Below are positions 5,453-9,735 of a DNA stretch of 32,000 bases, piece by piece. The stretch spans positions 2,760,001-2,792,000 of the forward strand of contig NC_017459.1 in the NCBI RefSeq assembly GCF_000237865.1. The letters run 5' to 3'. Within the stretch, counting starts at the first letter, position 1; each line of letters starts with the position of its first letter. The notes below the pieces were generated by a model. That model had not been told where the DNA came from and made no database searches. It saw nothing but the letters and a program-made list of their open reading frames with translations. The stretch comes from Haloquadratum walsbyi C23 (GTDB taxonomy: Archaea; Halobacteriota; Halobacteria; Halobacteriales; Haloferacaceae). The translations under genes and the position numbers were made by a program.

Positions 5453-5579
5453 ACTCTGTTCGGTGGTCAGTGATCACGTCTGGCATTTACCAATCCGATT
5501 AATGCAGTGATAGTAGATTTTTGATCACACGGAGTCAAAACGAACGTTTAAGTCTCAAGATTCAATATTTTGCTTAAGT

Positions 5580-5654
5580 GGGTTGGTGGTCTAGCCCGGT
5601 TATGACGGCTCCTTCACACGGAGCAGGTCGGCGGTTCGAATCCGCCCCAACCCA
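5580..5654 (+). tRNA. tRNA-Val (anticodon CAC)
   Basis: Hand-folded cloverleaf. Acceptor stem GGGTTGG/CCAACCC (5580-5586/5647-5653). Anticodon stem GCTCC/GGAGC with loop TTCACAC (CAC at 5615-5617). T arm GGCGG-TTCGAAT-CCGCC. Discriminator A5654. No encoded CCA and no intron. Confidence 0.9.
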
Positions 5655-5892
5655 TACGCGGCACGTACGGATTGTATTCGGCCGTATTCTCTGCCTTCAG
5701 ATCTTATAACCGATGAATAGCCAATACCGGATGAGATTTCGAGGTCATGAACACATTCGCTTGTTGCACGCGGGTTTCCTCCGTATAAAAGTCCGATTAT
5801 TGAACATGGTTGCCCAGATAGAAAAGTAGAGGCTGATAGGTGCTTCCAGCGCGCGCGATAGTTGACTTACTCGCGTGGCATTTCCTTCAAAT

Positions 5893-6069
5893 TCATTGTT
5901 CCATCTGTTCGAAAAATCCGTGCCATCGTTCGGGCATATCGTTAGTGTCGTACACTCCCTCGTTTGCCAGTTCTAAGAGTCGAACAGCTCCAGCGTCAGT
6001 AAGGTTCTGGAGAGTAAGTTCCTCGACTGTCTCCCTCCGTATCGACTGACTCAACCACCCAAATAACAC
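5893..6069 (-). CDS. hypothetical small protein (58 aa from GTG, 53 aa from TTG 6054)
   Basis: Below the 60-aa cutoff of the ORF track; I translated it by hand: (V)LFGWLSQSIRRETVEELTLQNLTDAGAVRLLELANEGVYDTNDMPERWHGFFEQMEQ*. It is acidic, lies in the GC-rich island, and is divergent from the PLD-NTPase gene. No family recognised. Confidence 0.2.
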   Translation of the reverse strand: MLFGWLSQSIRRETVEELTLQNLTDAGAVRLLELANEGVYDTNDMPERWHGFFEQMEQ

Positions 6070-6199
6070 AAAAAGGACTGGTCATCGTCAAGCGCCGTGT
6101 TGTGTGCGCCGCTGGCGAAGTGTCTCCAAGCGCCGATGATGTAGTCTCCACTACCGCTCTACGGCACGGTTTTATTCATGTTAGACCGCTGCTGTGTAT

Positions 6200-8473
6200 A
6201 TGGACGAATTGACTGCGAATATCTCGTTTGACAGGTTCGCGGATATGCCGGAGTTCTATGGATCTGGTGCTGCGGAATACCGCCTGGTAATGGTGAAAGC
6301 GCGGGCTGACTTTCTCGATTTGTTCGCAGGCGCTCGTCACGTGGACGCCGTGACGTACGCGGAGACACCCGACCTGATGGTGAAGATGCTGACCGAATAC
6401 GACATCGGCTCACTTGACGTGCTCATCGGGAATGCAGAAGACTACGCCGACCAGGTGAATGAAGTCTCGACGGCGAGGTCGCTTGTCCGACTGCGACAGG
6501 ATGATAGACTCACGATTCGACTAAAGAACCGGAAGACAGTCCACTCGAAGATTTACCGAATCGTGATGCCGGATGACACAGTGAAACTCGTCCAAGGGTC
6601 AGCCAACCTCTCGCGGAACTCCTGGGAGTACCACACGAACCAGATATCCATCATCACAACCGATGTCGGAACCGAACTGGACGAGGAGTTCGAGCGGTTC
6701 ATCGACGAGTACCGTGAGGGGTACAGCGACCAGACGCTCCTCGAAGGGCTTGTCGAGGCACTGGAAGATGCCGATTCACCGGAAGAGAAGGAGAACCGCA
6801 TCGAGTACTGGGTTGGTGCCGGCGATCTCGACGTGAGCGATACTGCTGCCCTGAATCAGGATGCCGTCGAGGACCTGAAAGATGTCGCCGATCAGGTCAC
6901 TGCCGTCGTCGACGACCCAGAGGAGGCTGAGGAGACGGTTGCGTTCGTCGAAGAACCCGAGAACGCCGACCGTAATGTTGTCGAGCCGGACGAGCCAACA
7001 GATGAAGACGATTCGACCGACGCTGCGGACGACGACGAGTCACCAGACGTTGGGCTCGTCGAATCGGATCACGAAACAGGGCTGACGGACGGGCTCGACC
7101 GCCCGCGAGTCCGTGCGCCCGACGAGAAGATACGCATGGGAACCAGCAAGGTGGACAAAGACACTGCTGACGAGTTCGGGGTCGGGCTCCGTGACCGCGG
7201 CGCGACCGTCGAGGATCACAGCATCACCGCGCCGCTGAGCGCGTACAACAATCAGGTGAAGGAATCGACCGCTATCCCGACGATGTCCGTCCTTCCGGAG
7301 GCCGAGCAAGTCGTGATCGGTGAGGACGACGAAATGATTCTCGTCGCTACCGACGAGCCGACCCCTGAAGTCCTGGATCACTGCCTCGAAACCATCGAAG
7401 ACTACATCGAAACCGTCCAAAACCACGGTCACACGCAATCCGAAACCGCAGTGATGGCGCAGATGTATGAGGCATTCCTCTACGGGTTCTGGGCCCCGTT
7501 CGCCAACCAGTACGCCGAGGCGTTGTCGTCACCGTCTCGGACGCTTGACAACGTTCTGCAGCACCTCTACATCGAAGGCAAAAGTGACGCGGGGAAGGAC
7601 AAACTCACCGAGTACATCCTGCGGCTCGTCTCCGACAACACAGTCATTTCTGGCGTGGACGCGGACGATGTTGGCGTCAAGGAAGTTCGCGGTGTCCGCG
7701 AGTGGGACACGTGCTTCCCGTACGCCATCATTGACGCCGAAAAGGAGAAAATCCAGCGGTGGAGCCCGATCCGAAACTACTGGGGTGACTGGACACCCAC
7801 CAGCGTCGATCAGCCGTGCCTCATTTTCACGACCAACGACGCACTCCCGAAATCGGAGTTCCGGAACCGAATGAAAATACTGAGTATGGACGTTTCCTTC
7901 CCTTCGAACCCGGAGGATCCGGGTTTCCGCGAAGCGCAACAAGACCTCTCGGAGGTGCTGGAACGACAGAACCCGATCTTCAGTTACGTTGCCCGCCAAA
8001 TGCTCACCGAGCAGCCGTGGACTGACGGGAACGGCACGATCGAAGACGTTCGCCGTATTATCCGCGAATTCTACGATGAGGCCGGTCGAGAGCAACCCGA
8101 GTACTTCCCCGCTGACGAACCGGCCGAGAAAACGTACGACACGGGGCGGTTGAAGTGGCAGCGGGATATCCAAGGCGGTCGTGTCACGTTCGAGTCGGAG
8201 CCGAATGCCATCACAGCTGACTTCGACCGTGAGGAGTACGAGGTGTACGACTATGAGAAGCGCCTCCCCAAACGATTCATGTCCGAGAAATCGTCCACAA
8301 GCGTCTATATCGGTGCACCCGAGGAATTCGCTGAGTGGATCGGGTACTCTGTCAGCGAACTTCTAAACGGCGCGGCCGAAACCGGCACGGATACTAAGCA
8401 GTCAGCCACCACAGAAGACGCATCGGATACGGACGACTCGGACGGGTTCTTCTCTCGGCTGTTCGGGGACTAA
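6200..8473 (+). CDS. PLD/HKD nuclease-like domain + polyacidic linker + SF3/D5-like P-loop NTPase fusion protein
   Basis: 759-aa ORF starting at GTG 6194 (ATG at 6200). ORF-track numbering is used below. An HKD-type motif H117-S-K-IYRIV...VQ-G135-S-A-N-LS spans nt 6542-6625. A D/E-rich linker covers about aa 185-310. Then come a Walker-A-like G462-KSDAGKDK, a Walker-B-like AIIDAE (511-516), an SF3 motif-C-like LIFTTN (543-548) and RNRMKIL. GC is clearly above the backbone. Confidence 0.85.
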   Translation: MDELTANISFDRFADMPEFYGSGAAEYRLVMVKARADFLDLFAGARHVDAVTYAETPDLMVKMLTEYDIGSLDVLIGNAEDYADQVNEVSTARSLVRLRQDDRLTIRLKNRKTVHSKIYRIVMPDDTVKLVQGSANLSRNSWEYHTNQISIITTDVGTELDEEFERFIDEYREGYSDQTLLEGLVEALEDADSPEEKENRIEYWVGAGDLDVSDTAALNQDAVEDLKDVADQVTAVVDDPEEAEETVAFVEEPENADRNVVEPDEPTDEDDSTDAADDDESPDVGLVESDHETGLTDGLDRPRVRAPDEKIRMGTSKVDKDTADEFGVGLRDRGATVEDHSITAPLSAYNNQVKESTAIPTMSVLPEAEQVVIGEDDEMILVATDEPTPEVLDHCLETIEDYIETVQNHGHTQSETAVMAQMYEAFLYGFWAPFANQYAEALSSPSRTLDNVLQHLYIEGKSDAGKDKLTEYILRLVSDNTVISGVDADDVGVKEVRGVREWDTCFPYAIIDAEKEKIQRWSPIRNYWGDWTPTSVDQPCLIFTTNDALPKSEFRNRMKILSMDVSFPSNPEDPGFREAQQDLSEVLERQNPIFSYVARQMLTEQPWTDGNGTIEDVRRIIREFYDEAGREQPEYFPADEPAEKTYDTGRLKWQRDIQGGRVTFESEPNAITADFDREEYEVYDYEKRLPKRFMSEKSSTSVYIGAPEEFAEWIGYSVSELLNGAAETGTDTKQSATTEDASDTDDSDGFFSRLFGD

Positions 8474-8706
8474 TCTTCCTGATTCCCTGTCAGATTCTTG
8501 CGGAGGGCTATATGATCTCCACCGCTTGCTCGGTCAGTCGATAGCAATACGCTGGTCAGACAACTTCAACAGTTAGAGCCTCTTTAGTTTCACCTTGCTT
8601 GCCATACGTTATTGTACCCTCCGCTGTCAGTTTACAGTAATTCAGTACTAATGATTCGGCTCTGCACGTTTAACTAGTATCGAAATATGGTAACCAACGA
8701 CGGCTG

Positions 8707-9060
8707 ATGTTTCCGATTACGGATTTTCTGTCATGCACCGATCCACTTGATGAGTTCGAGTCACTCTCATATCACCGGACTCGCCACGCCAAAACGTACG
8801 TGACAGGTCTTGCTGCTGGTCGCAGCAAGATCGTTACCGGGATCGCACGAGAAGTCCTTCCAGCCGGAAGTGACCGAGCACTCAACAAGTTTCTCACTGA
8901 GTACGACTGGGACGAAGACCAGCTCAACCACGAGCGGTTAGAGGGACTGCAAAAACATGGTGGAAACCGGTGGTCACAAGATGGTTACATCGTTATTGAC
9001 GATTCGGTGTTCCAGCGAACCGGGAAGGATAGTGATTCAACAAACTTCTGGGTGAACTAA
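8707..9060 (+). pseudogene. truncated DDE transposase, N-terminal ~109 codons only (IS701/DDE_5-like pattern)
   Basis: The 117-aa ORF contains YVTGL...LNKFLTEYDWDEDQLNHERLEGLQ...GYIVIDDSVFQRTGK. That is the region leading to the first catalytic D of this transposase type, whose intact members are several hundred aa. Transposase-like sequence ends at ~9032, and the last 9 codons read into an unrelated repeat. Confidence 0.55.
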
Positions 9061-9140
9061 TTCACTCAGTCGATGCGAGAGAACTATTCTGACTGATGCA
9101 TGTCTACTCAAGCACCCACTTCTTCTGTGAGCTACTATAG
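9033..9140 (+). repeat. repeat copy A (decayed IS1341/TnpB-type 3' coding-end-like sequence)
   Basis: 9033-9106 aligns without gaps to the reverse complement of 18082-18155 (63 of 74 identical by my count). Gapped similarity continues to ~9140. Downstream, 9121-9200 resembles 20918-21015. Confidence 0.7.
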
Positions 9141-9735
9141 TCGTGGGTAGCTGACTCAGGAGTCCAATCACTCATTCTCATGCGATTCGAACTAATTCAC
9201 CAAACTAATCTCATCCGATTACCGGCTGTCCCTGTCCAAATATAGACACACTAGTGCGCATAATTCATTAATCATATACACGTATAATGTATTTACACCG
9301 GGTTTGCACATGTAGTAGCAGTACGAACACTATTCTCCTGACTGTCACCTATGTCGGATGAACACCGGTTTATTGATGACTGAAGCGGATTGATCGATGC
9401 ATACCGAGTCACGTCGTCGAGTGCATTGACAATCTGGCATGTTGCACGTTCTCCACGGTTACTACCCGCGCGGTTGAGCAGAATAATACGACGCTCGCAA
9501 TGTCCGCGACAATATTTAAACGTGACACCAAGCGCACACCGTTGATTGTGGAATAGTAGGGGTGGGACACTCCGAGCAACTCATAAAAACAGAAAGCTCT
9601 AGTCTCAACAAGCGAGGGGCAGAGAACCCCGATCGTAGGAGGGTGGAATAATTCACTCTGTAATCAGTCGTTTTGTGTGTCTGAAATCCACACAGCAATG
9701 TGTCTGGAAGGTCATAATTCAACCATGGCGGTAGT

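Follow-up and report, generated by a model that had tools for sequence, protein, structure and literature searches.

A horizontally spread haloarchaeal gene joining a PLD nuclease domain to a probable SF3-type NTPase, and its proposed role in DNA defence

The window analysed here is a 32 kb stretch of the Haloquadratum walsbyi C23 chromosome, and the subject of this report is one gene within it (6200..8473, forward strand), the PLD-SF3 gene, whose 757-aa product appears to join a nuclease domain of the phospholipase D (PLD) type to a nucleoside triphosphatase (NTPase) of superfamily 3 (SF3). The product corresponds to CCC41521.1 / WP_014556880.1, deposited as a 'PLD-like domain-containing protein' or as uncharacterized, and five proteins encoded around it match exactly: CCC41515 (NadA), CCC41520 of the glutaredoxin cluster, CCC41523, CCC41525 and CCC41528. 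Along the window, nadA-nadB-nadC, pyrF and a glutaredoxin gene are followed by tRNA-Val(CAC) (5579..5655, forward strand, located with ARAGORN), a GC-rich stretch, and then further housekeeping genes, for YdjM/DUF457, an arylsulfotransferase and a permease. The tRNA gene marks the left edge of a foreign island of ~3.5 kb, in which the GC content rises to 0.56-0.59 from ~0.46 elsewhere in the window. At third codon positions the GC content of the PLD-SF3 gene reaches 72%, against 36-40% for host genes, and the gene has therefore been imported recently from a high-GC haloarchaeon. The original prediction for this locus had described a GC-rich island beside a tRNA with one intact large open reading frame (ORF), and this description holds: the tRNA and the compositional shift are in place, and the flanks contain only fragments.

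The same prediction had placed the ORF at 6194..8473 on the forward strand. The frame is real, but its start was set two codons too early, because all 15 aligned related loci have the ATG at 6200, a Met occupies this column in 93% of family members, and the deposited protein begins there; the GTG at 6194 is not conserved. Residue numbers in this text are nevertheless counted from 6194, as they were in the prediction. About 27 nt 5' of the ATG lies a TATA-like box, TTTTATT (6170..6176, forward strand), a probable archaeal promoter. The surrounding element, GG[T/A]TTTATTC, is kept in 13 of the 15 aligned loci; in the two exceptions, L003 and L033, the gene stands immediately behind HerA in an operon. 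Where it stands alone, the PLD-SF3 gene is thus probably a self-contained expression unit with a leaderless mRNA.

All motifs that had been read from the ORF were found at their assigned positions on the forward strand: HSK...GSANLS (6542-6625) in the N-terminal part, GKSDAGKDK (Walker A, 7577-7603), AIIDAE (Walker B, 7724-7741), LIFTTN (motif C/sensor-1, 7820-7837) and RNRMKIL in the C-terminal half, and the tail DSDGFFSRLFGD. The N-terminal PLD domain (aa 3-184; 6200..6745) is recognised from sub-threshold Pfam matches, an AlphaFold model and Foldseek searches. It carries a single HKD-type motif, HSK(x16)GSANLS, with both parts of the signature, H117-S-K119 and G135-S-A-N138, present; H117, K119, S136 and N138 make up the catalytic set. 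H117, K119 and N138 are invariant in all 346 aligned family members and S136 nearly so. As had been noted, the motif is of the form without the classic Asp, the HxK(x)4D position being occupied by V124. The scores of the window protein against Pfam PLDc_2 (24.8 bits, cut-off 27) and RE_NgoFVII (20.1 bits, cut-off 23.8) both fall just below the gathering thresholds. Its relatives pass these models in precomputed annotation, and 33-34 of 60 distant members match them at E<=0.01 (34 of the 60 in the case of RE_NgoFVII), so that the low scores are a shortfall of sensitivity and do not contradict the other evidence for a PLD domain.

Structures were modelled as monomer domains, aa 1-215 and aa 311-759. 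The N-terminal model (pLDDT 85.9, pTM 0.85) gave 88 Foldseek matches in the PDB at E<=1e-3, led by R.NgoAVII (E=6e-9) and SauUSI (E=4e-8) and followed by F13, Nuc, Zucchini, PLD3/4 and BfiI; in a profile search of the PDB with hmmsearch, NgoAVII was again the best match for the domain (E=0.02). NgoAVII and SauUSI are ATP-dependent PLD restriction endonucleases, and single-HKD chains such as Nuc and BfiI pair to build one active site. The claim of an N-terminal PLD nuclease was thus borne out by a separate domain model and its matches to known PLD nucleases, and from its conserved residues and its modelled fold we take the domain to be a catalytically complete HKD nuclease domain.

The C-terminal half begins with a small alpha/beta domain and a helical bundle (aa 311-456; 7124..7561, forward strand), delimited by the secondary structure of the model and by conservation and containing the invariant E426. 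It is followed by a P-loop NTPase core (7562..7963, forward strand), which we assign to the D5/P4/VirE type of SF3 from its invariant residues, the strand order of the model, and Foldseek searches of the PDB and BFVD. The core comprises the Walker A motif with G462, G467 and K468, the Walker B motif, motif C/sensor-1 with N548, and a candidate arginine finger, R559 (7868-7870). Across 80 representatives, E426, G462, G467, K468, P509, N548, R559 and P635 are invariant, and K468, N548 and R559 are so in all 348 family members; like those of the PLD domain, the motifs are thus far from a chance occurrence. Read over the family, Walker A is G-x4-GK[T/S/G], Walker B is hhhhDD, motif C is [S/T][S/T]N at the end of a strand, and the Arg follows 11 residues on, with a compact spacing of ~45 aa from A to B and ~35 aa from B to C. 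In the model (pLDDT 83.8), LIFTTN548 ends the strand E233-237, and R559 precedes the strand E250-254.

Foldseek matched this model in the PDB to SV40/JCV large T, SCCmec Cch, PriRep1, MPXV E5/D5, papillomavirus E1 and B19V NS1. The AAA+ clamp loader RFC and Cdc6 are also among the matches, so that on the modelled fold the distinction between SF3 and other AAA+ proteins is not absolute. In BFVD there were 24 matches at E<=1e-3 (best 2.5e-6), and those with names are nearly all phage or plasmid primase-helicases: D5-ATPase-helicase, P4-type primase, VirE, DUF927 and COG5545. Since all sequence-only searches of the C-terminal domain came back empty, the SF3 assignment is drawn from predicted structure; among the 60 distant members, the SF3 Pfam models DUF927 and RNA_helicase were matched once each (E~4e-3). 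The SF3/D5-like NTPase that had been proposed for this half therefore keeps its motif order, and its separate model matches SF3 helicases weakly in the PDB and clearly in BFVD, which gives the assignment, as a reading of the model, moderate to good support.

The original prediction had considered that the Walker A might be atypical or degenerate, and degeneracy is not supported. In the haloarchaeal clade of the window protein the motif reads GK-D (K468-D469, 7595-7600): the residue after GK is Asp in this clade and T/S in 167 of 348 relatives. The Walker B motif, FPLVFDD in the wider family, is changed in the same clade to AIID514-A-E, with Ile in place of the first Asp (I513-D514, 7730-7735). 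The two changes go together: among the 348 family members, GK-D occurs with [I/S]-D at Walker B in 154 of 154 cases and GK-[T/S/G] with DD/DE/DN in 193 of 194, a coupling confined to a few related clades and consequently representing few independent events. Selection on the domain is strong. Against close relatives with unsaturated dS, the ratio of nonsynonymous to synonymous substitution rates (dN/dS) is 0.02-0.04 for the NTPase domain; it is 0.03-0.05 for the whole gene against its closest relatives at dS 0.35-0.8, and ~0.03-0.05 also between copies that stand alone (L009, L015, L018), although pairwise dN/dS is blind to the most recent branch specifically. Because of the strict covariation of the two motifs and the low dN/dS, the NTPase site looks reconfigured rather than decayed, and the altered residues suggest a relocated Mg2+ ligand rather than a dead ATPase. 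The covariation amounts to a small natural experiment in moving the Mg2+ ligand of a P-loop NTPase.

Between the two enzymatic domains lies an acidic linker (aa 185-310; 6746..7123, forward strand). It had been described as almost entirely D/E/P/T, which overstates the case: its composition is 36% D+E, 6% K+R and 48% D+E+P+T. Residues 185-210 are predicted to be helical and packed on the PLD domain in the AlphaFold model, with a conserved W206, while aa ~233-308 form an insertion that most non-haloarchaeal members do not have. At a dN/dS of 0.05-0.11, purifying selection persists in the linker as well. Beyond the NTPase core, a C-terminal alpha/beta domain (aa 664-716; 8183..8341, forward strand) is modelled with a pLDDT >90 from the elements E354-367, H371-379, E387-396 and H399-406; F712 and W715 are conserved in it, and it possibly binds DNA. 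The protein closes, after a disordered acidic spacer, with the peptide DGFFSRLFGD (8441..8470, forward strand; low pLDDT). Most of the 80 compared members have a comparable ending, hydrophobic-hydrophobic-x-[R/K]-hydrophobic-hydrophobic (only 3 of the 80 with the strict motif), flanked by basic residues in bacteria and acidic residues in haloarchaea, and the peptide could be a docking or auto-regulatory element.

The architecture is widespread. A search with aa 311-759 returned 184 representative clusters at 50% identity from archaea and bacteria, including Chloroflexota, Elusimicrobia and Chlamydiae; most members have 640-700 aa, with the NTPase domain at ~270-660 behind an N-terminal PLD domain. 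Nearly all relatives with 68-94% identity carry Pfam PF27394 (Aq_aa27), as do the 757-aa products at the same locus in environmental contigs; this membership is taken from precomputed annotation of the relatives. The fusion of a PLD nuclease to an SF3 module, which had been thought to lie outside described families, is thus already catalogued as Aq_aa27, with the gene itself annotated as PLD-like, and what is new here is only the proposed function and the SF3 assignment. The close clade, with 75-97% protein identity across >20 haloarchaeal genera, is represented by 43 loci in a species-representative genome set and by 163 clusters in a large protein collection, and further haloarchaeal sub-families follow at ~42%, ~36% and ~31% identity. 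As had been predicted, the homologues are patchily distributed and sit in variable regions and defence islands. The PLD-SF3 gene has been acquired horizontally and has spread among haloarchaeal genera.

Such mobility raises the question of whether the gene serves a mobile element, and the original prediction had offered a replication protein as its alternative to defence. The PLD domain would then nick an origin, forming a covalent phospho-histidine link, and the SF3 domain would unwind it, much as in the HUH-SF3 Rep or primase-SF3 proteins of plasmids, phages and integrative elements. D5/P4/VirE modules of SF3 are indeed hallmarks of mobile-element replication, and phage primase-helicases give the closest structural matches. 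The gene adjoins a tRNA in an integration hotspot, some homologues (L003, L008, L010, L020, L021) have integrases nearby, and horizontal spread and megaplasmid copies, the latter numerous in the more distant haloarchaeal sub-families, are evident. However, no homologue was found among 50,697 phage records, the plasmid matches are all non-mobilizable replicons of 99-706 kb with replication systems of their own, and the PLD-SF3 gene has no consistent link to a replication, partition or integrase gene. Distant members are single genes among housekeeping genes, as between argJ and argB. The gene is usually present once per genome, and the DNA conserved with it has no terminal or origin-like repeats. 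We thus found little to support a role in replication or mobilisation and consider it unlikely.

The short reach of that conserved DNA could also be taken to mean that the gene moves itself. DNA likeness to the window covers the gene with ~50-120 bp upstream and at most ~100 bp downstream, a unit shared between genera whose proteins are very highly identical, and PLD enzymes are chemically capable of transesterification, as established for BfiI; a one-gene selfish element could use the PLD domain as a transposase or homing nuclease with phospho-histidine chemistry, aided by the SF3 domain. Yet the boundaries of the shared DNA vary among loci (left at 6073, 6088, 6110 or 6146; right at 8473, 8563 or 8571), and they show neither terminal repeats, inverted or direct, nor a target-site duplication, but only short repeats at chance level. 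The copy number of essentially one per genome, the promoter, which explains the conserved upstream DNA, and the neighbours co-transferred with the gene at many loci likewise speak against self-mobilisation, which we regard as highly improbable.

The loci differ in their neighbours. In 23 of the 43 haloarchaeal loci the gene is solo, and the distant members examined (Chloroflexota, Elusimicrobia, Chlamydiae and a haloarchaeal clade at 40% identity) are solo in five of five cases, with no recurring partner. The copy between argJ and argB lies beside HicAB; others lie beside VapBC, HigB, AbiEii or MNT/HepT, or within an island of type III restriction-modification and ThsB-TIR genes, and megaplasmid copies are found among NERD/DEAD helicases, insertion sequence (IS) elements, AddAB-like genes and ThiF. 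In 16 of the 43 haloarchaeal loci, by contrast, a conserved operon lies within 10 kb, encoding a Metallophos (Mre11-like) protein, an SMC/Rad50-like ATPase of 903 aa, NurA, DUF8166 and HerA. A divergent 373-aa Csa3/MarR-like winged helix-turn-helix (wHTH) protein and a 239-aa protein often accompany the operon (e.g. L003:213-15115). In L003, L032-36 and L044, HerA directly precedes the PLD gene in the same orientation, and in L003 the two are 9 bp apart. An Eco57I-type N6-adenine methyltransferase is encoded within 10 kb, in variable position and orientation, in 13 of the 43 loci (nine with the operon, four alone), and a ~110-aa ORF adjoins it in other genomes.

PADLOC does not recognise this island as a system, although single genes score on its models: the methyltransferase on mad2 (59 bits), the SMC-like ATPase on mad3 (98 bits) as well as LmuB, PbeC and DndD, and HerA on mad8 (87 bits). 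HerA, NurA and DUF8166 are 81-100% identical across genera and show the two sub-clades seen for the PLD gene, while the methyltransferase is variable, with a median identity of ~52%. This is the pattern of a co-transferred system with a diversifying specificity subunit, and the HerA-NurA-DUF8166-SMC-Mre11-like and methylase island has the appearance of a multi-gene, methylation-linked system, so far undescribed, that is spreading among haloarchaea; the literature searched contained nothing on a combination of HerA, NurA, a PLD protein and a methyltransferase.

The composition of the operon also lends itself to a reading in terms of DNA repair, in which the protein would be a Tdp1-like phosphodiesterase/NTPase that cleans blocked ends together with an imported HerA-NurA-Mre11-Rad50-type resection module. 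Archaeal end resection by HerA, NurA, Mre11 and Rad50 is established from thermophilic archaea, and the 16 operon loci have just this set of genes; moreover, Pfam Tyr-DNA_phospho matches 19 of the 60 distant members, and some RefSeq copies are named 'tyrosyl-DNA phosphodiesterase'. A repair enzyme would hardly be expected to show the patchy, transfer-driven distribution seen here, which is not that of a conserved core gene, or to sit in variable islands beside toxin-antitoxin and restriction genes. The closest PLD structures are the restriction enzymes R.NgoAVII and SauUSI, not Tdp1, the SMC-like and HerA-like genes score on the defence models LmuB, mad3, PbeC and mad8, and the fast-diverging methyltransferase present in 9 of the 16 operon loci is typical of self/non-self marking. 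A repair function thus appears quite unlikely.

In the window itself, only traces of the island are left. Upstream of the gene, on the reverse strand, a 52-aa fragment (5896..6051; 67% identity, E=4e-20 in blastx/tblastn comparisons with ORFs of L035/L036/L044/L007) is the remnant of the ~110-aa ORF that elsewhere adjoins the methyltransferase. Immediately downstream, blastn and blastx identified the last ~90 bp of the neighbour gene 'c371' (8474-8563) and a displaced piece (8580-8654) that in L012/L040 is found 0.8-2.8 kb further downstream. Next comes a truncated DDE_5 transposase fragment of 117 aa (8707..9060, forward strand), which covers only positions 10-94 of the 272 in the Pfam profile. 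Thirteen partner and neighbour proteins were looked for across the 32 kb, and no gene for any of them is present, the 52-aa fragment excepted; the methyltransferase is likewise missing from the entire window. Because its flanks keep only pieces of its usual neighbours, the window copy is the intact survivor of a decayed larger island. Partner genes could lie elsewhere in the H. walsbyi C23 genome, outside the 32 kb.

Such surroundings invite the view that the gene itself is a functionless leftover in the C23 genome, dependent on the deleted HerA, NurA, SMC and methyltransferase partners and not yet decayed. The partner-gene fragments and IS remnant that make up its flanks, and the decayed copies known from elsewhere (Halorubrum amylolyticum L048/L049, Halolamina H3, DL31 H21), are in keeping with this. 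But the ORF is intact, with all catalytic residues and its own conserved promoter-like element, and at least six environmental Haloquadratum contigs from different samples have kept the same arrangement as the window, with the solo gene and its intact 757-aa product. Solo copies among the related loci are evidently maintained, given their dN/dS relative to one another, all five of the distant members are solo as well, and we judge it unlikely that the window gene has lost its function.

The site is polymorphic between Haloquadratum haplotypes, as the comparison of strains at tRNA-Val called for by the original prediction revealed. In haplotype L059, an environmental Haloquadratum contig (L059:1-6800, equivalent to window ~5656-9156), unrelated cargo occupies the same site: a 759-aa protein with DUF8266 and an AAA_11/AAA_12 SF1 helicase, several small ORFs, and a phage-integrase fragment of 248 aa. 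The two haplotypes become collinear again at about 9156, the approximate right edge of the variable region, with 83% identity over 9156-9584 and 98.6% thereafter. The exchange fits the 'deletion-coupled insertions' described for H. walsbyi (PMC3119063). An intact tRNA-integrating element was considered and rejected: the window contains no second copy of the tRNA-Val 3' end, hence no att-type repeat, and no integrase.

Taken as an enzyme, the PLD-SF3 protein is in our view somewhat more probably than otherwise a self-contained, NTP-dependent DNA endonuclease that guards against viruses and plasmids. Its SF3-type domain would assemble into an oligomer, as a rule a hexameric ring, and use NTP binding or hydrolysis to load onto DNA or travel along it. 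Two single-HKD PLD domains would together make up one active site, as they do in Nuc and BfiI, and the long, flexible acidic tether could let them dimerise on the captured DNA. Cleavage would be metal-independent, proceeding through a covalent phospho-histidine intermediate at H117, and NTP binding or hydrolysis would gate or drive cutting, by analogy with SauUSI and NgoAVII/CglI. In full islands, the methylase would probably mark self DNA, and HerA-NurA with SMC-Mre11 may process or deliver DNA; solo copies might spare host DNA by recognising foreign DNA forms or modifications. Since the gene is solo at 23 of 43 loci and in five distant members, hosts must be able to tolerate the nuclease, and presumably profit from it, when no cognate methylase is present. 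Coupling of PLD nucleases to NTPases is found in validated defence modules, Azaca and Mokosh (bioRxiv 10.1101/2025.07.10.664194), and D5-type SF3 modules have been proposed to be domesticated into counter-invader systems (PMC10853773).

Several observations weigh against this assignment. The hexamer, the PLD dimer and the type of target DNA are inferred, and a solo nuclease would somehow have to spare host DNA. The SF3 matches in the PDB are weak (E 4e-3 to 6e-2, prob 0.5-0.99, TM 0.2-0.33); the C-terminal half has no sequence match in Pfam, NCBIfam, PHROGs, PADLOC or the PDB (phmmer and profile searches), no SF3 family profile (e.g. Pox_D5, D5_N, VirE, DUF927, RNA_helicase) matches the window protein, and no PADLOC, NCBIfam or PHROG model recognises it as a whole. 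The haloarchaeal clade is missing both the canonical Ser/Thr of Walker A and the leading Asp of Walker B, and its members may hydrolyse NTPs slowly or just bind them. The co-location with defence genes is circumstantial. Finally, the literature searched, which included few subscription journals and in which absence is no proof, holds no description of a PLD-SF3 protein and no assay of a family member.

Among known defence enzymes, the closest functional parallels are SauUSI and NgoAVII/CglI, together with Azaca, Mokosh and DISARM DrmC; all have SF1 or SF2 motors, and in all but SauUSI a separate gene encodes the motor. SauUSI is the ATP-dependent type IV restriction endonuclease of Staphylococcus aureus (PDB 7clg). 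Like the window protein, it combines in one chain an N-terminal single-HKD PLD domain with an NTPase motor and C-terminal domains; only R.NgoAVII resembles the modelled N-terminal domain more closely than SauUSI does (E=4e-8). It defends without a cognate methylase of its own, which would explain why solo copies of the family are tolerated. However, its motor belongs to SF2 and is accompanied by an SRA-like reader of modified cytosine, whereas that of the window protein is SF3-like with no reader domain detected, and the two have no detectable sequence homology outside the PLD domain. A type IV enzyme of the SauUSI type was rejected as an identification on these grounds, as neither an SRA-like nor another reader was found. 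In NgoAVII/CglI (PDB 4rct), which supplies the best structural and profile match for the PLD domain, cutting requires nucleotide hydrolysis, and the nuclease has a methyltransferase partner, an arrangement also seen at some haloarchaeal loci. There, however, the nuclease and the N ATPase are separate proteins, the R protein has a B3-like domain, and the ATPase is not the fused SF3-type module of the window protein; the methyltransferase, moreover, is absent from most loci of the family, the window included. A classical type II/III restriction-modification pair was rejected as well: a methyltransferase accompanies only 13 of 43 loci, is lacking in the window, and the five distant members are solo.

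Azaca (ZacABC), Mokosh and DISARM DrmC share with the window protein the coupling of a PLD nuclease to a P-loop NTPase, but their partners are SF1 or SF2 helicases encoded by separate genes, and the window protein matches none of their models. In the family, 26 of 60 members weakly match the PADLOC ZacB model, over the PLD region only (aa ~84-250), and a few match DrmC, PbeA or PLD_Helicase. ZacA/ZacC, MkoA and DrmA/B are absent here, and no ZacA/ZacC-like neighbours occur in the gene tables examined. Membership in Azaca (ZacB with ZacA DUF6361 and the ZacC SF2 helicase) was accordingly rejected, the ZacB match being limited to the PLD region of some relatives and the partners not being seen. 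The D5/P4-alpha/VirE SF3 primase-helicases of phages, plasmids and poxviruses provide the closest fold for the C-terminal half, with the same order of Walker A, Walker B, motif C (N) and Arg and the same compact spacing. Those proteins carry primase, PrimPol or Toprim N-termini and replicate mobile elements, in contrast to the PLD nuclease of the window protein, whose family has neither replicon context nor phage homologues.

The island of the relatives, with its mad2-, mad3- and mad8-like genes, recalls MADS and the HerA/FtsK 'capture' systems, multi-gene defence related to Dnd and BREX, in which HerA has been proposed to pump invader DNA to a nuclease with the participation of domesticated D5-type SF3 modules (PMC10853773). 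In the capture systems described so far, inactive D5 modules are joined to HerA rather than to a PLD nuclease (PMC10853773). MADS requires the Mad6 kinase, the DndG-like Mad7, the HerA-like Mad8 and a methylase, and has a specificity subunit and no PLD, NurA or Mre11-like part (MADS preprint and supplement). Membership of the relatives' islands in MADS was rejected, as no kinase or DndG-like gene was seen in them and MADS lacks PLD, NurA and Mre11; the window has no MADS gene. In the preferred reading, PLD-SF3 would represent the nuclease-NTPase theme of defence with an SF3 motor in place of an SF1 or SF2 motor.

It is enticing, if tentative, to extend this reading to the whole Aq_aa27 family as a single-chain defence class: a captured D5-type SF3 ring would carry six tethered half-site PLD nucleases that cut the DNA it encircles, such as replication intermediates or incoming linear DNA, and would need no host modification; in haloarchaea, it would also be the effector of an undescribed island of 7-9 genes combining HerA-NurA-DUF8166-SMC-Mre11-like functions with an Eco57I-type methylase. 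We regard this as possible but doubtful. PLD nucleases powered by SF1/SF2 ATPases are established as anti-phage effectors. A PLD nuclease fused to an SF3 motor of the replicative-helicase type was not found described in the literature searched, and the family is nevertheless large. If the defence reading is true, the gene would be a compact single-gene system in which a replication motor of mobile elements has been recruited against mobile elements. Few defence systems have been assayed in hypersaline archaea, and the viruses of Haloquadratum have long been elusive; the PLD-SF3 gene, like the HerA-NurA-SMC-Mre11-methylase island that travels with it, offers a concrete candidate that can be tested.

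Some minor observations concern the islands and their remnants. The island loci are L003, L007, L008, L011, L013, L023, L032-L036, L041, L043, L044 and L048. A recurrent pair, 'c371' (~380 aa, weakly Csa3-like wHTH) and 'c252' (~250 aa, no family match), stands between the PLD gene and the HerA operon (L008:12315-14310, L013:5338-7333, L040:12314-14309, L033:12642-14636). A second pair, upstream of the methyltransferase or the PLD gene, consists of a 318-aa HTH protein with HVO_2833_C and a 291-aa protein with a weak NTP_transf_5 match (L011:3985-5817, L012, L014, L041-L043), and is possibly a regulator or toxin-like module of the island. A relative of the window's DDE_5 fragment, with 68% identity, lies close to the PLD-SF3 homologue of L010 (Halomicrobium katesii), and a 21-nt imperfect direct repeat at 9050-9070 and 9641-9661 (GGGTGAACTAATTCACTCAGT / GGGTGGAATAATTCACTCTGT, 591 nt apart) may represent old IS ends. 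As for decayed copies of the gene, Halorubrum amylolyticum retains a 3' fragment beside an intact HerA operon (L048:2189-2861) and, at L049:9888-11757, ~170 nt of the gene at each end around ~1.5 kb of unrelated sequence, and partial copies occur on plasmids of Halolamina, DL31 and Halorubrum ezzemoulense (plasmid matches H3, H21, H22). In Halorubrum californiense (L027), a tRNA-Val lies ~2 kb from the homologue.

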